Source: an uncultured delta proteobacterium (GTDB lineage Bacteria; Desulfobacterota; Desulfomonilia; UBA1062). From it: 64,000 bases of DNA. Shown here one piece after another: positions 39,838 through 48,307 of this stretch. How positions within the stretch are numbered: the first letter of the stretch is position 1; each line of letters begins with the position of its first letter. Below the pieces are notes generated by a model. The model was not told where the DNA came from. It made no database searches and saw only the letters and a program-made list of their open reading frames with translations. The position numbers and the translations under genes are program-made. The stretch spans positions 192,001-256,000 of the forward strand of contig CAWAUM010000012.1 in assembly GCA_963785235.1 (NCBI GenBank), given 5' to 3'.

Positions 39838-41913
39838 ATGATTCTATTTTTCTATGGAATAACCGCATTCGTGAGCCTGCTGGGGGGGATGATCATCCTG
39901 TCCCGCAGCGGGGCCTCGCATGGGAGGGCTATCGCATGCGGGCTGCTTGCCATTGCAGCCACTGAGATCAGTTACCTCATTTATTATCTCAGAGAAACCT
40001 TGTTGGCACTCCAGGCAGCATCGTTCTTCGAGTTAGCCTCCATCAGCTTTTTTATCATTTCGGTTATTTCCATGGAGAGAAACATTTCGAGAAATATTCA
40101 AATCGTTCACTTGACACGCCGTGGCTTGATCCTGGTCTGCACCCTCTACGGATTAACACTTTTAATCTACCCGGAAGCCTATGCTTATATACACCTCGAC
40201 GATGTAGTGGTCATCGACTGGCTTGGCCGTATCCAGTCTTTTCTTCTCATGGTCGGTGCTATTGCATTTATCTGGCTTATGGAGAACATCCTCAGATCTT
40301 CCCAAGGAGTCAGCAGAAGAGTACTTAAGTACCCTGCACTAGGCTCTATTTCTGTGGGCGCATCCTTGTGCATCACCTCCATCTACAGGCTCAGCACCAA
40401 CAGCATATCTAACGACATTCTCATCCTTTGCTCGCTGATTACCCTGGTGGGTGTTGTATTCCTCATCTTCTTTTCCATACGGTTCAAGCTGTTTGAGATG
40501 GATATATTCGTTTCGCGTTACGTGGTTTATCACTCCATCACCTTTATCAGCATCGGCACATATTTGTTATTCACGGGTCTCGTCCTTTTCTGGGTCACGC
40601 ACCTGGGGATAAAGCTGTCTATGGTTACCACGGGTTTTGTAGTCTTCCTTGCACTCATCCTTCTTTCCATCATCATCCTATCCCCTGAAGCCAAAGCCCG
40701 CATACAATTTTTCATCAATACCCACTTCTTTGCCAATAAGTATGACTACCGAAAGGAATGGGGTGAACTGAGCGCCTCCCTGTCAATTGCCTTCAACGAG
40801 AATCAGATCATTCACCTTACATCCCAGATAATCCTCGATAGCATGTACATTAGAGAGCTTACCATCTGGATACTTGAAGGAGAGTCCTACAAATGCGCAT
40901 TCTCCTTTCCTAAGGCCTCTGGAGATAACCTCATAAGCGATAAGCATCTCATCATAAGTTACCTGGCCAACAACCCCTATTTTATAAGAAGAACACCCCG
41001 AAAAACTAACGATACGCTTTGGGAGGACATTGTAAAAAATCATTCCGACTTCCTTAACCGAAACAAGGTGGAGCTCGCAGTAGGAATGATGGCAGGTACC
41101 ATGATTGGTTTTATTGCTATTGGCCAGGAGAACCCTGGTACACCTTACGGCCAGGACGATATTGACCTCCTGAACGCCGTTGCATCCCAGGCAAGCGCTG
41201 CCCTTATGAGTGCACGCTATGCCAAAAAACTTGCCGAGAACAAGGAGCTCGATACGTACAATCGCATGTCTGCAACCGTGCTTCATGACCTTAAAAACGC
41301 GGCAGGACACCTTTCCCTTATCCTCCAGAATGCCCCTAAACATATGGATCAGGCAGAATTCCGCAAAGACATGCTTGACACCATCTCAGAGGCCCTTGCC
41401 CGGATAGACAAGGTCATGAACAAACTCAAGGCAATCCCTGAGAATGAAGAAATCCATACGAAAACCTTCAAAATCAAACCCTTCCTTGAAGAGCTCCTTG
41501 CCGGGCTCAGGCCCAGACTGGAACATATCCAGGTCATACATAATTTTCAAGGCGCATTCGAGCTTACCACTGATCCTGATATCTTATACAAAATACTCGA
41601 GAATATCATTGTGAACGCCACTGAAGCAGTCGGGGATGATGGGAAAATAACAATTGCTGCTGGCATAAAGGGAGATTCAACGGTTTTCACCATCACCGAC
41701 AACGGTGTAGGCATGACGGATGAATATATCCGGGAGAAACTCTTCAAACCTTTCCAGACCACCAAGAACAAAGGCACCGGCCTCGGGCTGTGGCAGGTTA
41801 AAAATATGGCTGACCAGCTCAGGGCAAGAATTGACGTGAAGGCGAATCAGGACCGGGGAGTTACTGTCTCCGTATGGTTCCCTCAAAATCAATCCAGGCA
41901 AGATACACCATGA
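39838..41913 (+). CDS. prsK: PEP-CTERM system histidine kinase PrsK
   Basis: Multi-TM N-terminus, HFFANKYDYRKEW, GAF, LHDLKN H-box, LFKPFQTTK..GTGLGL; adjacent to PEP-CTERM genes. Confidence 0.92.
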   Translation: MILFFYGITAFVSLLGGMIILSRSGASHGRAIACGLLAIAATEISYLIYYLRETLLALQAASFFELASISFFIISVISMERNISRNIQIVHLTRRGLILVCTLYGLTLLIYPEAYAYIHLDDVVVIDWLGRIQSFLLMVGAIAFIWLMENILRSSQGVSRRVLKYPALGSISVGASLCITSIYRLSTNSISNDILILCSLITLVGVVFLIFFSIRFKLFEMDIFVSRYVVYHSITFISIGTYLLFTGLVLFWVTHLGIKLSMVTTGFVVFLALILLSIIILSPEAKARIQFFINTHFFANKYDYRKEWGELSASLSIAFNENQIIHLTSQIILDSMYIRELTIWILEGESYKCAFSFPKASGDNLISDKHLIISYLANNPYFIRRTPRKTNDTLWEDIVKNHSDFLNRNKVELAVGMMAGTMIGFIAIGQENPGTPYGQDDIDLLNAVASQASAALMSARYAKKLAENKELDTYNRMSATVLHDLKNAAGHLSLILQNAPKHMDQAEFRKDMLDTISEALARIDKVMNKLKAIPENEEIHTKTFKIKPFLEELLAGLRPRLEHIQVIHNFQGAFELTTDPDILYKILENIIVNATEAVGDDGKITIAAGIKGDSTVFTITDNGVGMTDEYIREKLFKPFQTTKNKGTGLGLWQVKNMADQLRARIDVKANQDRGVTVSVWFPQNQSRQDTP

Positions 41914-41987
41914 ACTATAGCAAAGACCGAAGGTTATTGAGGACAAAGCACATCTGAAAAAAATTCTCAGCATTAGGGGTCTAAGAC

Positions 41988-43346
41988 ATGAAGGATCAGA
42001 TACTGATCATTGAAGATGAATCAAGTATGGCAAAACAGCTCAAGTGGGGCTTGAGCGACTCCTATGATATCTTTACCGCAACAAATGCCGCTGATGCAGT
42101 GCGTATTCTCCAGAGAGAGAGCCCTTTAGTTGTGCTGCTTGATCTTGGACTTCCGCCGTATCCTGACAGCGCAGAAGAAGGATTACGGCTACTGGAGGAA
42201 ATTATCCGGAAAAAGGACCAGACAAAGGTCATAGTGATCACCGGAAACACTGATAAAATGAATGCGGTAAGGGCTGTCTCGCTCGGCGCATACGATTATC
42301 ATACCAAGCCTGTAGATCTTGAAGAACTCAGGATCGTCATCAAGAGGGCAATCCATTTATCCCGGTTGGAAAACCAGGTTTCAGAGCTCCACTCAATGGT
42401 CGCCGGAGAATTGCAATTCCATGGAATGATAGCTACCTCCCAACCCATGTTGGACCTGTTCGAGCGCGCCAAGAAGGTTGCCCGCACCGATTACCCCGTA
42501 CTGATCGAAGGAGAGAGCGGTACCGGCAAAGAGTGTCTTGCAAAAGCAATCCATGCCATGAGCGACCGCTCCGATATGCCTCTAGTTATTATCGACTGCG
42601 GGTCCATACCGGAGAATCTCCTGGAAAGCGAGCTCTTCGGCCATGAGAAGGGATCGTTCACCGGGGCGCATGCCCGTCAGATCGGCAAGGTCGAAAGGGC
42701 TCAAGGAGGAACAGTAGTGCTCGATGAGATAGGCGAACTCCCTTTCCAGCTTCAGGTGAAACTCCTCAGGTTTATCCAGGAGGGCACCATTGAACGGGTT
42801 GGCGGCAAAGAGCCTCTCTCAATCGATGCCCGGATGATTGCCGCTACCAATGTGGACCTCAAAAAAGCGGTTGATAAAAACCTTTTCAGGGAAGACCTTT
42901 ACTATAGGCTCAATGTGATCCCAATGTCCATACCTGCACTGAAGGATCGACCGGATGACATACCGCTCCTGGCGAGATATTTCCTGGATTCTTTCAGCAA
43001 AGAGATCGGCCCGAGGTTTAAGGGATTCAGTTCCAGGGCCATAGATGTCATGATGAAGCATGACTGGAAAGGCAACATACGGGAGATGCAGAACAGGATC
43101 AAGCGCGCAGTCGTCATGGCCGAAGGCGATTACATCCAGCCGCCAGACATCGACCTTGGTGATACCACGGATGAAGGGATATCTCAGACCCTGAAAGAAA
43201 TTCGCGATTCGGCCGAGATCTCAGCCATAAGACATGCCCTGGCACGTAACATCGGCAACATATCAAAGGCGGCGCAGGATCTTGATGTAAGCAGGCCGAC
43301 TCTTCATGACCTTATTAAAAAACACGGCATTACTATTTCAAAATAA
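41988..43346 (+). CDS. prsR: PEP-CTERM-box response regulator, sigma54 enhancer-binding protein PrsR
   Basis: LDLGLPP receiver, GESGTGKE, ESELFGHEKGSFTGA, Fis HTH VSRPTL. Confidence 0.92.
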   Translation: MKDQILIIEDESSMAKQLKWGLSDSYDIFTATNAADAVRILQRESPLVVLLDLGLPPYPDSAEEGLRLLEEIIRKKDQTKVIVITGNTDKMNAVRAVSLGAYDYHTKPVDLEELRIVIKRAIHLSRLENQVSELHSMVAGELQFHGMIATSQPMLDLFERAKKVARTDYPVLIEGESGTGKECLAKAIHAMSDRSDMPLVIIDCGSIPENLLESELFGHEKGSFTGAHARQIGKVERAQGGTVVLDEIGELPFQLQVKLLRFIQEGTIERVGGKEPLSIDARMIAATNVDLKKAVDKNLFREDLYYRLNVIPMSIPALKDRPDDIPLLARYFLDSFSKEIGPRFKGFSSRAIDVMMKHDWKGNIREMQNRIKRAVVMAEGDYIQPPDIDLGDTTDEGISQTLKEIRDSAEISAIRHALARNIGNISKAAQDLDVSRPTLHDLIKKHGITISK

Positions 43347-43349
43347 GAA

Positions 43350-43583
43350 TTAACCAGGAAAGAGGTTCTTAAGCTCTTTCCTGAGTGTCTTTATTATGTC
43401 CTGCTTTTCCCGGTTAGTCTTCTCGACCTTCTCAAATCTCTGGGCAAGGGTTTCAACCTTCTCCTCAAGCTCATGAATCCGGGAGATAATCTTATCGAGC
43501 TCCGCCTTTATATCAATGTCGGAAGAGATGCCTTCCATCAGCCCCAGCAGGTCGTTGACCTTCTTGGAGGTATCAGGATCCAT
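43350..43583 (-). CDS. Small coiled-coil protein (last gene of the pom-like operon)
   Basis: MDPDTSKKVNDLL..., 77 aa, heptad-rich; start overlaps the upstream stop; GAGG RBS. Confidence 0.7.
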   Translation of the reverse strand: MDPDTSKKVNDLLGLMEGISSDIDIKAELDKIISRIHELEEKVETLAQRFEKVEKTNREKQDIIKTLRKELKNLFPG

Positions 43584-44340
43584 ACACCTCACGCTTGGCC
43601 TTAAGCCTGATATGCGACAGGGATGAATACACCCTGTCCAGTGCAATCTTGAGCTCGGCAATCTCATCTTCCAGCGGTTTTCTTTTATGGTATTCTTCCT
43701 CGAGCTTGGTTTCCAGTTCCTGAATTCTTGCAGTGCTAATACCCAGGTCCTTCTCGAGGATGGATACCTTGACGTCGAGCCTTGCCTTGTCCTGGATGTC
43801 TTTTGAGAAGCGCATGAGCCTTTCCTCAAAGGCCTTGCTTTTTGTCACCTCAGCATCAAAACCGATTGTCCTCTCATCGAGCATTCCCACCACATGCTGG
43901 ATATAATGGTCTGCATCATCGAGCTGTTCGTTCAGGAACAGGATCTCCCGATCCAGGAGCTTATGCTCCTGTGCCGCCATTTCGAGTTCGGCAAGATTTA
44001 CCTTAAGGCTTGAATTTTCCCGCCCGATCTCTTCGATGACTCTATCATGATCCTTGAGCTTGCGGGCAACGTCCTTTTTCTCAAAAAGGATCTGGGAGAA
44101 CTCAGTATTCAGATCCTCAATGGTTTCTACAGCCCTGGCAATGGTGGCATGAGCAATGTCTTTTGATACCATGGGGGATATAACCGGTTCTTTGTGGGCT
44201 GCCGGTGCAGGAGCGGTCTGCTCTTTGATCTCTTCCTGGGGCTTTATAAGTACCGGGTCTACATTCCAGGGCCTGTTGGGACGGCGCTTCTGCATCTTGG
44301 GCATCCGCTGCGCTACGCTTGTATCAAAACCGTCTTTCAT
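43573..44340 (-). CDS. PomX-like coiled-coil protein with N-terminal ParA-activating peptide
   Basis: MKDGFDTSVAQRMPK N-terminus, Pro/Ala linker, long C-terminal coiled coil. Confidence 0.7.
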   Translation of the reverse strand: MKDGFDTSVAQRMPKMQKRRPNRPWNVDPVLIKPQEEIKEQTAPAPAAHKEPVISPMVSKDIAHATIARAVETIEDLNTEFSQILFEKKDVARKLKDHDRVIEEIGRENSSLKVNLAELEMAAQEHKLLDREILFLNEQLDDADHYIQHVVGMLDERTIGFDAEVTKSKAFEERLMRFSKDIQDKARLDVKVSILEKDLGISTARIQELETKLEEEYHKRKPLEDEIAELKIALDRVYSSLSHIRLKAKREVYGS

Positions 44341-44433
44341 AGATAATAACTCCTCATTTCAATCTATTGGCATCAGAAAAAGATCCAATGCCCTTCAGGT
44401 TGCTTCCGAGCACTACGTTAACCATAAAACCGA

Positions 44434-45393
44434 TTAAAAAACAATCGGGAGATTGGGAAAAACCTCCCGAATAAAATCATTCAGATCTACCGAGCCTCTG
44501 TTCTTCGGTGCATACTGCGTAATAGGTATCCCTACACTCGCAGCCTCGGCAATTTTTATGTCCTGGCGTATCAATGTCTTCATAAGATAACCATTATAGT
44601 GCGTCTCCAATGCCTCTTTCGCCCGCTGGCAGATATTGTGGGATGCATTATAGTTATTCAGAAAGATATAGATATTCTCAAAGATGAATTCAAAGTCTTC
44701 CTCAATAGTCGATAACGTCTCGAAGAGGATCTTAAGCCCATGGTAAGACAGAAAATCCGCCAGAACCGGTACAAAAAGATCATTGCAGGCCAGGATGCCG
44801 TTCAGATTCAACAAGCCGATGGATGGCGAGGCATCCATGACGATAACATCATAGTCATTCTGGATCGCGGTTATACTCTTTCTCAGGCGCTGCTCACGGG
44901 CATTCATGGAAGTGAGAGCCAGTTCCACCGGAGAGAGGTCGAGGTTTGCAGGGATAAGCTTCAGATTTTTCATCTTGGTATTTATGATAATGTCGCGAAT
45001 GTCAGTCTTCTCGATAAGGACACTATATAAGGTGTTTTCAATGGAATCATGATCGATCCCGAGACATTGAGTGAGATGGCCCTGGGGATCAAGGTCCATG
45101 AGGAGTACCTGCATGCCGAGCTGAGCCAGCCTGAAGGCATAGAAGGCCGAACTGCTCGTCTTGCCTGTTCCCCCTTTAAAGTTGAGGAATATCTGTCTCC
45201 TTTTGGATGCTAACAAGGGAGGTTTTCCGAGGCTCTTGAGATAAAAGGGGATATCATGCGGATAATAGATACGGACGCCATCAGCAAGCTGGGGTTGAGG
45301 GAGTGTTCCCTCAATCTCCATTTTCAACAGGGACGGCTTTGAAATCCCGAGCAATGTTGCAAATTCCTTGGCCGTATATACGGTCTGTTCCAT
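44434..45393 (-). CDS. PomZ/AgmE-like ParA ATPase with N-terminal HTH-like extension
   Basis: RRQIFLNFKGGTGKT, DLDPQGH, NDLFVPVLADFLSYHGLKILFET; close to M. xanthus PomZ as recalled. Confidence 0.85.
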   Translation of the reverse strand: MEQTVYTAKEFATLLGISKPSLLKMEIEGTLPQPQLADGVRIYYPHDIPFYLKSLGKPPLLASKRRQIFLNFKGGTGKTSSSAFYAFRLAQLGMQVLLMDLDPQGHLTQCLGIDHDSIENTLYSVLIEKTDIRDIIINTKMKNLKLIPANLDLSPVELALTSMNAREQRLRKSITAIQNDYDVIVMDASPSIGLLNLNGILACNDLFVPVLADFLSYHGLKILFETLSTIEEDFEFIFENIYIFLNNYNASHNICQRAKEALETHYNGYLMKTLIRQDIKIAEAASVGIPITQYAPKNRGSVDLNDFIREVFPNLPIVF

Positions 45394-46050
45394 CTATGAG
45401 CGCTCCCTCATGATCTCCCACCAACCCTGCCACCTTGCAATAATCCACTCGAATTCCTCTGATGAAGCACCAAGGGGTTCTCCAAAATCCTCACCCGTGA
45501 GCCTTTTTAGGGTATGCGCAGCCTGCATTCTCACTTCATGAGATGTGTCTTCCAGTGCCTGGATTACCTGCTCCACATTTTCTATGGATCCCCATATGGC
45601 GATCAGCCTCAGACAGTCCTTCCTGACGGATTCATCCGGATCTTCTCTGCAGAGTCTTGCCACTGCGCCAAGAGAGCTCTTGTCATTCAACCAGAAAATG
45701 TAGCTGATAATCCTCCTGCGGACATAGGAGTCTGGGTCTTCAAGCCATTTGATCCCATCTTCAGGACGGAATGCGCCTCTACGGAAAAGATACCGTATGG
45801 CCCGCGCCCTCACCCTGGGGTCTTCATCCCGGGTGGCTGCATGGAAGATATTCGAGAAATCGGCCTGGGCATCAAAGAGGATGTCATAGATGGCAGTAGC
45901 CGTAGGCTTATCGGCATCTTTAAGGACCTCGGACAAAACCTTCTCTGGGTCCGGGATATCGTTGAGTATGGCCCTTGCAGCCATCTTCTTGATTTCAGGG
46001 TCTGCATCATGCAGGTCTGCGAGAATCTGGTTCAAGCCGATACCCTTCAA
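45394..46050 (-). CDS. HEAT-repeat protein (PomY-like position)
   Basis: Repeated D.D..VR..A units; stop TAG directly abuts the ParA ATG; likely TTG start at 46050. Confidence 0.8.
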   Translation of the reverse strand: MKGIGLNQILADLHDADPEIKKMAARAILNDIPDPEKVLSEVLKDADKPTATAIYDILFDAQADFSNIFHAATRDEDPRVRARAIRYLFRRGAFRPEDGIKWLEDPDSYVRRRIISYIFWLNDKSSLGAVARLCREDPDESVRKDCLRLIAIWGSIENVEQVIQALEDTSHEVRMQAAHTLKRLTGEDFGEPLGASSEEFEWIIARWQGWWEIMRERS

Positions 46051-46162
46051 CGAACCCTCCCCTTTTTGTATGTATGAATATAAAGGGGAAGGATGCAATC
46101 AGTCAAGCATATCAAAGAAAAGGATTTTATCCGCTCATGACTCCATGGTAGAGCAGTCCTTT

Positions 46163-48307
46163 ATGGGAGCCCTCATAGCCGATGTAGTCATTCTTACAAA
46201 CATACCCAAGATTCTCTCCTATTCTATCCCTGAAGGGGTATGCCCAAAGGTAGGTTGCAGGGTCGAAGCGCCGGTCAGGAAGGCGACAAGGATCGGTATC
46301 GTCATCGGCATCCACGAGGGAACTCAGACATTTGAAGGGTTAAAGGACCTCATATGCGTACTTGATGAGCATCCTTTCATAACATCCGAACTCATCGAGC
46401 TCATCACCTGGACTTCGAGATATTACCATGCAGGCATAGGCCCCTGCATGGCATTAGCCTTTCCCCCATACCTCAGGGGAGGCCGAACTATAACAATAGA
46501 TATAGACCCGGTCTTATTCAGGACCGATCGCATACAAACCAAGACCGGACCTCATCAGAAGGCCATCCTTGATTCCATACCCCATACAGGCATCCGATTG
46601 AGCGACCTCAAAGGCCGTATACCGCGGCATGGCCCAGAATATGAAAGGCCTCATCAATCGCGGCCTCATTGAGCTCAAGGAAGACCCTGTCAGCTACGTC
46701 CCTTCATGCTCACCAACACCGGAGTACACCCCGGACCAGCAGATGGCTGTTCAGGAGATAAGCAAGGCCATCAAGGCAGGCAGATTCCATACCTATCTGC
46801 TCCACGGGATCACAGGATCGGGCAAGACAGAGGTATATCTGGCAACTGCGATGGAGGCCCTCAGGCATGGCAAGTCGGTCCTCTACCTGGTCCCTGAGAT
46901 CGCCCTGACACCCCAGACCATCGACATGGTCAAGAGCAGGATACCTGTAGAGGTGGCGGTGTTCCATTCAGGCCTAGCCCCAAAGGAACGGGCAAGAGAA
47001 TTCATGAAGGTGGCCTCAGGTGGTGTCAACTTCGTTCTCGGTACCCGTTCAGCCGTCTTTTCGCCTTTGAAGGAAATCGGCCTCATCATAGTGGACGAAG
47101 AACATGACCACAGCTACAAGCAGGACGACGGCATACCCTACAACGCCCGGGATCTGAGCATCCTGCGGGCAAGGAACAACCAGGCCGTGGTGATCCTGGG
47201 CTCCGCAACGCCCAGCATGGAGACTTATCAACGCTCAAGGCTTATCCCATTCAAGCCTCATCACCATGCCGAACCGGATCGGCCCCGCAGCATTGCCGAC
47301 AATCGAGATCGTGGATATGAGAGGAGTGGAAGGACCACTGTCGGAAAGACTCATCACGGAGATGAACCATACCGTCTCCAGGGGCGAGCAGGTGCTGCTC
47401 TTCATTAACCGCAGGGGCTTCTCGGCTGCCATGGTATGCCCGGGATGCGGCAAGGTCCTCAGGTGCAAACGCTGCGACAGGAGCCTCACCTACCACAAGG
47501 CCAAAGGTTTAGGCCTGTGCCACTGGTGCGGCTTTACCATGAAATTGCCCGAGATCTGCCCTTCGTGCGGGTGTCTCGACATGAAGCCCATAGGAATGGG
47601 GACGGAACAGGTCATAGCTTCAGTGGAAAAGACCTGTGCGGATAAGCGCCTGATGCGTATGGACTCGGACGAGATAACGAGTGCAGCGAAATTGACAACC
47701 GCCCTCGATTCCATCAGGGCCGGCCATGTGGACATCATTGTGGGAACCCAGATGATCTCCAAGGGGCATGACTTCCCCAATCTTACCCTGGTGGGGGTGA
47801 TTTATACCGAGCAGCTTCTGCATATGCCCGGACTTCAGGAGCCTGGAAAGGACCTTCCAGCAGATAGTCCAGGTAGCCGGGCGCGCAGGCAGACGGAAGT
47901 CCGACACCAAGGTCATCATCCAGACCCTTATCCCGGACCACCCGCTTATCCACTCGATTTCACGCTATGATTATCTCTCCATGATAGAAATGGAAAAGGA
48001 GATCAGAAAGGCAACAGGCTTCCCGCCATTCTCCCACATGGCCAGGTGCGTGATCACCTCCATGAAAGACAAGACTGCGCGGGAGTTCTGTACTCAGATT
48101 GCATCGGTTGTCAAGATACAAGGCGTCGAAGTTCTCGGTCCTGCCCCGGCCCCCATTTCGCTTTTAAAGAACCGCAACAGATGGCATATTATTTTGAGAT
48201 CCAAGAATAGAGGCTCTCTTCACAAGGCCCTTGACATCATTGAACAGGTCCCATGTCCGAAGGAAGCGGACCTCAAGATCGATGTTGACCCTTATTCCAT
48301 GATGTAA
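46163..48307 (+). CDS. priA: Primosomal protein N' (three frameshifts near 46620, 47240, 47830)
   Basis: GITGSGKTEVY, LVPEIALTPQ, DEEHD.SYKQ, SATPS, NRRG, two Zn-finger pairs, KGHDFP, QVAGRAGR (shifted frame), GPAPAP, IDVDP. Confidence 0.92.

Follow-up and report, generated by a model that had tools for sequence, protein, structure and literature searches.

The window analysed here, by which we mean the whole stretch of 64,000 nucleotides (nt), comes from a metagenome-assembled genome (MAG) of the class Desulfomonilia, from an uncultured relative of sulfate reducers. At 43350-46106 it carries four genes, all running in the same direction on the minus strand, that encode a HEAT-repeat protein, a ParA-type ATPase and two coiled-coil proteins. 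On balance, and by a modest preponderance, we interpret these genes as a chromosomal, ParB-less operon of the PomZ family that is an evolutionary relative of PomY-PomZ-PomX, reduced and re-partitioned, and for which the divisome is the favoured cargo. PomXYZ of Myxococcus xanthus acts as a positive regulator: its ParA-type ATPase transports a cluster of proteins across the nucleoid to mark the site of division. A preliminary description, made from the letters of the DNA, had reported four co-directional genes in which the TAG of the HEAT gene abuts the next ATG, and both features are there in the sequence. The four genes are as follows.

45394-46050, minus strand: gene 1, a HEAT-repeat protein of 218 amino acids (aa) (Pfam HEAT_2 8e-19, HEAT 1.7e-13)
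44434-45393, minus strand: gene 2, a ParA/MinD-type ATPase of 319 aa, almost certainly of the PomZ family (Pfam AAA_31 1e-45)
43573-44340, minus strand: gene 3, a coiled-coil protein of 255 aa (coiled-coil family matches, all sub-threshold)
43350-43583, minus strand: gene 4, a coiled-coil protein of 77 aa with a conserved N-terminal segment (a family of 40 loci)

The stop codon of gene 1 directly abuts the start codon of gene 2, a 93-nt gap separates gene 2 from gene 3, and the last 11 nt of gene 3 are also the start of gene 4, ATG included, an overlap suggestive of translational coupling between these two genes. The longest open reading frame (ORF) for gene 1 covers 45394-46098 and opens with a TTG at 46098. 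The likely start is nevertheless the second TTG, at 46050, because it lies 6-13 nt past a ribosome-binding site, GGGGAGGG, and because the resulting 218 aa match the lengths of the orthologues, which are 217-218 aa (218 aa in L006, L007, L009, L010 and L030; the L numbers denote metagenome loci).

The membership of the ATPase in a PomZ-like clade is, in our view, nearly certain. The deviant Walker A motif (KGGxGK[ST]) lies at K73-T79, and D102 is the equivalent of PomZ D90; both are invariant in an alignment of 20 family sequences. The D90A form of PomZ is the ATP-locked form (PMC7993993). Both ATPase strings quoted in the preliminary description are present in the translation, and the strings that it gave for M. 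xanthus PomZ occur near-verbatim in Myxococcota PomZ-type proteins from metagenome loci. Before the Walker A motif stands an N-terminal domain of about 60 aa that resembles a helix-turn-helix (HTH); it gives weak HTH_17 and excisionase matches, and some members of the family carry precomputed MerR-type HTH Pfam matches. This extension (about 55-70 aa) aligns from residue 1 with the Myxococcota PomZ-type proteins, with a length difference of 12 residues. A sequence search of the PDB returned generic ParA/Soj structures only, over residues 59-310, and none over the N-terminal domain.

A similarity search of 1.84 billion cluster representatives gave two best full-length matches outside the protein's own cluster, P0122 (46%, residues 1-317) and P0123 (45%, residues 4-315), so that the N-terminal domain is included in both. 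Below these two, the scores drop to about 150 bits, the range of generic ParAs. The names in the P0122 family include Vulgatibacter incomptus, Myxococcales and Myxococcota, and the cluster members of the 10 nearest representatives yielded one name only, Candidatus Riflebacteria (P0125).

Metagenome loci of Myxococcota type served as stand-ins for M. xanthus; they were verified by the published PomX peptide and the published PomZ residue numbers, and the ORFs in metagenome loci are mechanical calls from the first start codon. In these loci the ORF 3' of the ATPase gene starts with the published PomX activating peptide: L116, L117 and L132 reproduce its first 20 residues exactly, and 25 loci have close variants. 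The ORF 5' of the ATPase gene is PomY-like and about 450-740 aa long, and the PomY-like ORFs begin with a coiled coil, continue with HEAT repeats and a low-complexity region, and end in a conserved domain.

A 2025 preprint models 21 contacts of PomZ, with eight residues touching helix alpha5 of PomY and 13 touching the N-terminal peptide of PomX, and states that these residues are conserved in PomZ and not in ParA or MinD. A string filter recovered 58 ATPase ORFs from the Myxococcota-type loci (four of them mis-framed, and with no ORF in 22 loci), and 54 of the 58 have 17-21 of the 21 contact residues. The window ATPase is 44% identical to the ATPase of L117 over 315 residues from residue 1 (E 4e-96). 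Counted at a constant offset of +12, 12 of the 21 contact residues are unchanged in it and six more are conservative replacements; for comparison, Myxococcota proteins score 14-21 of 21 and generic ParA representatives mostly 5-7. In the alpha5 pocket six of eight residues are identical and two conservative, and in the PomX-peptide pocket six of 13 are identical, four conservative and three different (G268, E283 and V287).

A maximum-likelihood tree of 44 ATPase cores, from which long-branch rows and the plasmid and phage ParAs were left out, places the window ATPase in a clade of 26 rows (support 100/100, stem 1.72) together with both Desulfobacterota clades described below, the Myxococcota proteins and a few other clusters. 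This clade excludes 14 generic ParAs as well as the Soj-type ParA and the MinD-like paralogues of the same genome. Within it there is one group of Desulfobacterota proteins (85/93) and another in which the Myxococcota proteins are joined by two further clusters (70/94). Identity to the window ATPase reaches 32.5% at best for plasmid ParAs and 33.5% for phage ParAs. The expectation of the preliminary description that the ATPase would fall with PomZ, rather than with Soj, MinD or plasmid ParAs, thus agrees with both the tree and the identities.

Two features of the ATPases deserve mention in their own right. Three proteins of the PomZ-like clade (P0124, P0128 and P0131) have the ATPase core fused to a long Lys-rich, coiled-coil N-terminal region (414-584 aa), so that scaffold and ATPase may be one chain in these cases. 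The other is a conserved hydrophobic tail, FPNLPI(V/A)F, with which the ATPases of the window's own clade end (44434-44470 in the window) and which is absent from the second Desulfobacterota clade and from the Myxococcota proteins.

The gene order around the ATPase is conserved as well. The comparison covers the best 80 loci, all of Desulfobacterota type and all from MAGs, 79 of which have the ATPase ORF, and the denominators below are the loci with enough flank. There are two clades, with labels that follow the order of the locus list: clade A, to which the window belongs, has 45 loci with 70-95% ATPase identity, and clade B has 34 loci with about 57-62% identity and names such as Syntrophaceae.

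HEAT protein 5' of the ATPase: clade A 44/44, clade B 33/34
Coiled-coil protein 3' of the ATPase: clade A 40/40, clade B 30/33
77-aa protein: clade A 38/38, clade B 0/33
110-aa protein between the ATPase and the coiled-coil gene: clade A 0/42, clade B 29/34

The synteny proposed earlier is therefore real: the order HEAT, ATPase, coiled coil is kept in nearly all of the 79 loci and mirrors pomY-pomZ-pomX. The fourth gene, which the preliminary description had presented as part of the system, is present at the window operon and is confined to one of the two Desulfobacterota clades, and so we regard it as a lineage-specific accessory rather than a core component. The 77-aa family gave no profile match to anything in hhalign. 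Its conserved N-terminal helix, MDPDTSKKVNDLLGLMEGISSDID, loosely echoes the alpha5 contact pattern V-Q-x-A-L-x-A-M. A pattern search for alpha5-like helices in 59 PomY-like ORFs was set aside since it returned one plausible alpha5 (in L118) and its remaining matches fell on the first helix of the C-terminal domain; any resemblance of the 77-aa protein to alpha5 is accordingly speculation only.

Clade B, which is Syntrophia-like, has a different small protein. The 110-aa protein (in L051-L084, e.g., L066:6950-7282) repeats at its N-terminus the peptide motif with which the coiled-coil protein begins (91.6% in hhalign when compared with residues 1-30 of the coiled-coil protein from clade A), so that clade B would have two proteins bearing the putative activating peptide. 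In the 110-aa protein a conserved 'RPWDV' element comes after the motif; the coiled-coil protein of clade A has the two in a single chain. One locus falls outside this pattern. L080, from a MAG labelled Planctomycetota, has an ATPase 57% identical to that of the window and a downstream ORF of 310 aa in which an internal Met is followed by the same peptide motif, and no HEAT protein was detected 5' of the ATPase. This may be a mislabelled bin or a further variant.

In the coiled-coil protein encoded by gene 3, a conserved peptide at the N-terminus (residues 1-31) leads through a short Ala/Pro-rich linker to a coiled coil at the C-terminus. The linker has about 40 residues, as compared to residues 27-182 in PomX (PMC7993993). 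Conservation in the family is highest at the N-terminus, MKDGFDTSVAQRMPKMQKRRPNRPWNVDP, where M1, D3, G4, F5, V9, A10, M13 and P14 are invariant across 21 sequences from both clades. This N-terminus has M1, K2, F5, V9 and P14 in common with the published PomX peptide and resembles it further in the replacements of E6 by D, R15 by K and L16 by M. We scored this likeness with a test anchored at the N-terminus, in which 16 position classes were derived from 24 Myxococcota PomX N-termini only and which was chosen after the likeness had been seen. Gene 3 fits eight of the 16 classes, and nine of the 17,628 ORF starts in the genome do as well, a rate of about five in 10,000 that applies to a single ORF picked by synteny.

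A hidden Markov model (HMM) of the PomX peptide, run on the ORFs of the Desulfobacterota loci, had coiled-coil proteins as five of its six top matches (E 1.8-3.6), and the reverse HMM had no PomX-like ORF among its top matches in the Myxococcota loci. A protein-cluster similarity search with gene 3 found only unnamed or crescentin-like coiled-coil clusters, at 0.90-0.93 and with recognition short of the mark. Taken together, gene 3 appears PomX-like in layout, the evidence from its sequence is no more than suggestive, and we propose that its product is a putative scaffold and ATPase activator.

The HEAT protein occupies the position of PomY, its repeats being encoded directly 5' of the ATPase with the stop codon against the start codon. 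Profiles of the HEAT family match the HEAT region of a PomY profile in hhalign at 96.5% for clade A and 99.1% for clade B, and in BLASTP the window protein is 37% identical over 93 residues to the PomY-like protein of L117 (E 2e-7). As a control, an unrelated HEAT protein of 635 aa from the same genome scored 90-93% in hhalign against all three profiles, a control that removes the specificity of the match between the HEAT protein and PomY. The likeness of the HEAT protein to PomY is one of class and position only. A protein-cluster similarity search with the window protein gave a top match of 0.99 to a 214-aa HEAT cluster labelled mostly Myxococcota, which may be the HEAT protein's own cluster under old taxonomy labels.

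PomY has 682 aa, with a coiled coil at 5-106, HEAT repeats at 221-428, a disordered region that contains alpha5, and a globular C-terminal domain (2025 preprint). The window protein opens directly with the HEAT region and so lacks the N-terminal coiled coil, and it stops 11 residues past the aligned HEAT region, with no disordered tail, alpha5 or C-terminal globular domain. The earlier picture of a tail-less HEAT protein of about 218 aa is thus accurate. A search for close relatives of at least 383 aa found none and returned only two generic HEAT proteins.

The genome contains another pairing of a HEAT protein with a ParA/MinD-family ATPase. At C1:158382-163089 (C numbers denote contigs of this genome) the gene for the 635-aa HEAT protein lies about 2 kb from that of a MinD-like ATPase.

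The host does not belong to the myxobacteria. MAGs named Desulfomonilia, Thermodesulfobacteriota or 'Deltaproteobacteria' are the source of the nearest ATPase proteins (80-95% identity) and of the nearest loci, and the Desulfomonilia are a class of the Thermodesulfobacteriota (NCBI taxonomy). The placement of the host outside the myxobacteria in the preliminary description holds on these grounds. The genome is 3.9 Mb in 13 contigs and 93% complete, and the contig with the operon is at least 256 kb long. It has ftsZ, on C13 (ORF around 151390), and a canonical parA-parB pair at C2:229332-230451; the only ParB_N match in the genome, C2:229332-229610, adjoins the Soj-type ParA of this pair. Desulfobacterota and Myxococcota were both formerly 'Deltaproteobacteria'.

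The surroundings of the operon are a chromosomal housekeeping context, with priA divergent, PrsK/PrsR convergent and trpA nearby. The two-component pair of the PEP-CTERM/XrtA system, at 39838-43346 on the plus strand, converges on the 3' end of the operon; the PrsK histidine kinase matches TIGR02916 (4.8e-101, 339 bits, above the cut-off) and the PrsR sigma-54 response regulator matches TIGR02915 (1.8e-170, 568 bits). Compared with the 91%-identical L005, the priA gene (46190-48307, plus strand) has three single-base insertions, at about 46625, 47241 and 47830, which split it into four frames; each insertion adjoins a short stretch of G or C, and L005 and L007 have the gene as an unbroken frame of 739 aa. 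These breaks are either indel errors of the assembly or signs of a decaying gene, and the neighbouring four-gene operon is free of them. Three local signals accompany the operon.

46077-46106, minus strand: a promoter-like site, TTGACT, 18 nt, TATATT, with 10/12 matches, 5' of the HEAT gene
44445-44470, minus strand: a terminator-like hairpin plus T-run over the 3' end of the ATPase gene, with a 10-bp stem and five G-C pairs
43355-43383, minus strand: a 13-bp inverted repeat (92% complementary, 3-nt loop) at the extreme end of gene 4, followed by a T-rich stretch

Four promoter-like sites were seen in the region as against 4.2 expected from shuffles, so that the first site carries no weight by itself and only its position fits. 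The scan found five terminator-like hairpins against 2.8 expected, which lends weak support to the second site; it may be an internal attenuator, and the inverted repeat may be the terminator of the operon. As for expression, contigs from one RNA library (X19), from relatives 90-97% alike, cover 25 of 30 bins, and single contigs bridge the HEAT/ATPase, ATPase/coiled-coil and coiled-coil/77-aa junctions. The RNA library of a second study (X20) has a contig 99% alike over 45836-46055. This is a weak hint that the operon is transcribed; RNA libraries can hold DNA, and such contigs do not prove a single transcript.

The distribution of the ATPase was surveyed in 401 genomes sampled evenly from the phylum, counting as carriers those with a match of E 1e-60 or better. 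Twenty of the 401 genomes are carriers. They comprise all seven sampled genomes of the host family plus the window's own genome, 10 of 11 genomes of family f10, and the single sampled genomes of families f5 and f7 (1/1 each); there was none in the other 108 sampled families, including a second family of the same class (0/7).

We think that the three-gene module of HEAT protein, ATPase and coiled-coil protein probably shares ancestry with PomYZX. Several results weigh against this. An HMM of the N-terminal 24 residues of Myxococcota PomX ranks gene 3 at 840 among 29,844 six-frame ORFs (E 710), a PomX HMM run on the genome has no match at gene 3, BLASTP of gene 3 against PomX gives E 1.7, and the hhalign values against PomX are 17.7% (clade A) and 77.5% (clade B), over coiled-coil segments only. 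The lysine K13 of the 22-residue PomX activating peptide, which is essential together with R15 (PMC7993993), is M13 in gene 3, with a basic residue at position 12 instead. On the side of PomY, the PomY HMM places the unrelated 635-aa HEAT protein of the genome first (C1:158382-160289, 1.7e-19) and the operon's HEAT protein second (7.8e-11), and the PomY profile against the single window protein gives 91.9% in hhalign, no better than a generic HEAT protein. The PomY tail, residues 438-682, has all of the activating activity and the PomZ binding (2025 preprint), so that the window protein is without every part of PomY that has been shown to activate or bind PomZ. Finally, the tree does not resolve the Desulfobacterota branch as sister to the Myxococcota PomZ proteins (34/49).

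The preliminary description had named a lack of detectable homology of the flanking proteins to PomX and PomY as a reason to give up a Pom-type reading. This is half the case. The coiled-coil protein has no significant similarity to PomX by profile or BLASTP, and the similarity of the HEAT protein, by the profile control, is generic rather than specific to PomY.

If the operon works as a Pom-type system, we predict that the ATP-bound ATPase dimer would bind the nucleoid non-specifically and that the 255-aa coiled-coil protein would self-assemble into a scaffold that also holds the HEAT and 77-aa proteins. The conserved N-terminal peptide of the scaffold would dock on the ATPase dimer and stimulate ATP hydrolysis, and the resulting flux of ATPase on the nucleoid would shift the cluster to mid-nucleoid and thereby mark the division site. 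The most likely cargo would be the divisome (FtsZ), on two grounds: no characterised relative is nearer than PomXYZ, and the genome has no MinCDE. That the operon positions the division site is, from this analysis, a serious possibility that falls somewhat short of being probable.

The Min genes had been recommended for checking, and the genome (93% complete, as noted) has no MinC, no MinE and no MinD above the cut-off; its best MinD match is the MinD-like ATPase on C1, at 124.9 bits, and the window ATPase itself scores 30.6 bits on the bacterial MinD model as compared to a cut-off of 212.9. Two points count against a role in division. MinC is rare across the phylum, being present in 28 of the 401 sampled genomes, so that the absence of MinC from the carriers (0/20, with about 1.4 expected by chance) is uninformative, and an anticorrelation with Min was rejected as support since 0/20 is the chance level. 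Moreover, nothing in the operon or its neighbours ties the system to FtsZ or to division genes.

The strongest competitor keeps this kind of machine, in which a PomZ-family ATPase drives a cluster of coiled-coil and HEAT proteins across the nucleoid, with a cargo other than the divisome. The cargo could be another cytoplasmic assembly, or the cluster itself could aid nucleoid organisation or segregation. ParA/MinD ATPases organise many genetic and protein-based cargos (PMC11407121). The neighbours priA, PrsK/PrsR and trpA, with no link to FtsZ, would suit such a cargo, and so would the absence of the PomY parts tied to PomZ activation and the lack of weight of the Min result in this phylum. 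The accessory genes that differ between the clades, 77 aa in A and 110 aa in B, fit a changeable adaptor or cargo end. On the other hand, the only characterised members of the ATPase clade are PomZ proteins, the loci that were read have no carboxysome, chemoreceptor or flagellar genes in or beside the operon, and no sampled genome of the host family lacks the module (7/7 plus the window's), as expected of a core cell-cycle function. We consider a non-divisome cargo rather unlikely, and divisome positioning by a Pom-related operon the better interpretation.

A DNA partition system similar to type Ia, in which a ParA with an N-terminal HTH would work with the coiled-coil protein as a centromere-binding adaptor in place of ParB, is very improbable. 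The best NCBIfam match of the ATPase is to RepA (TIGR03453, 7.7e-33, residues 6-216), at 113.9 bits against a cut-off of 348, and the HTH-like matches of its N-terminal domain, MerR-type in some members, point the same way. However, profile scans of the operon proteins found no ParB-like, ParB-type or ribbon-helix-helix partner, no iterated centromere-like repeats or repeat arrays flank the operon, and the genome has its canonical parA-parB pair elsewhere. Identities of 32.5% and 33.5% to plasmid and phage ParAs, as opposed to 44% to the PomZ type, and a contig of at least 256 kb with housekeeping surroundings also speak against it. That the four genes are mere neighbours in a coincidentally pomYZX-like order can hardly be credited: HEAT repeats and coiled coils are common and the flanking proteins have no family-specific similarity to PomY or PomX, but the stop and start codons abut or overlap, the adjacency is kept in nearly all of the 79 loci down to about 57-60% ATPase identity, and eight positions in the N-terminal peptide of gene 3 are the same throughout both clades.

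PomXYZ has been treated as myxobacterial only (PMC7993993; 2025 preprint), with the conservation of PomX, PomY and PomZ stated for Myxobacteria in the parts of the preprint consulted, and the reviews, in the sections consulted, place PomZ under M. xanthus only. Among the papers that the literature searches listed, none is on a Pom-type system outside Myxococcota, and supplements to these papers could list further orthologues. Whatever its own task, the operon described here suggests an earlier origin and a more modular build for such positioning systems than has been assumed. A more specific version, which we offer tentatively and consider doubtful, is that Pom-type positioning predates the myxobacteria and has as its core a PomZ-type ATPase, a bare HEAT protein and a peptide-bearing scaffold. 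The condensate-forming tail of PomY, with its role as second activator, would then be a later myxobacterial addition, and in the Desulfobacterota small lineage-specific proteins would supply the second-activator role in trans. In the Syntrophia-like clade the second activator would be the 110-aa protein with the second peptide motif, and in the Desulfomonilia it would be the 77-aa protein, which could occupy the retained alpha5 pocket (6/8 identical).

If the relationship holds, a related and stripped-down module in two lineages of another phylum would provide natural 'deletion variants' that reveal the core parts of Pom; for example, the whole PomY tail, responsible for ATPase activation and PomZ binding, is missing from the Desulfobacterota module. 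The protein set is small and would be tractable for reconstitution in vitro. The module is also a candidate answer to how the septum is placed in some Min-less anaerobes, and if the cargo is not the divisome, it would represent a new cargo class for this ATPase clade.

Among known systems, MinCDE and MipZ have ATPases of the same superfamily, and the operon may share their cellular task. These systems regulate Z-ring placement negatively, and the window ATPase stands apart from the MinD-like paralogues of its own genome and has partners unrelated to MinC, MinE or ParB. Type Ia partition systems (RepA of repABC, P1 ParA and F SopA) likewise have a ParA-type ATPase with an HTH-like N-terminal extension, and RepA is the best NCBIfam match, far below the cut-off. 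In contrast to these systems, the window operon has no ParB, centromere-like repeats or mobile context, and plasmid and phage ParAs are further from its ATPase than the PomZ-type proteins are.

PomXYZ of M. xanthus is the closest. The differences are a HEAT protein of 218 aa with repeats only, as compared to the 682-aa PomY, a coiled-coil protein without profile-level homology to PomX and with M13 for K13, an extra gene of 77 aa in clade A or of 110 aa with a second peptide motif in clade B, and a host that is a Desulfomonilia MAG. What the two have in common is a ParB-less, chromosomal operon in which a HEAT protein and an ATPase are followed by a coiled-coil protein that appears in both to open with a short conserved peptide and to continue with a low-complexity linker, and an ATPase that is in the same strongly supported clade, shares the N-terminal extension, and keeps the D90 equivalent and 12 of the 21 partner-contact residues plus six conservative replacements.

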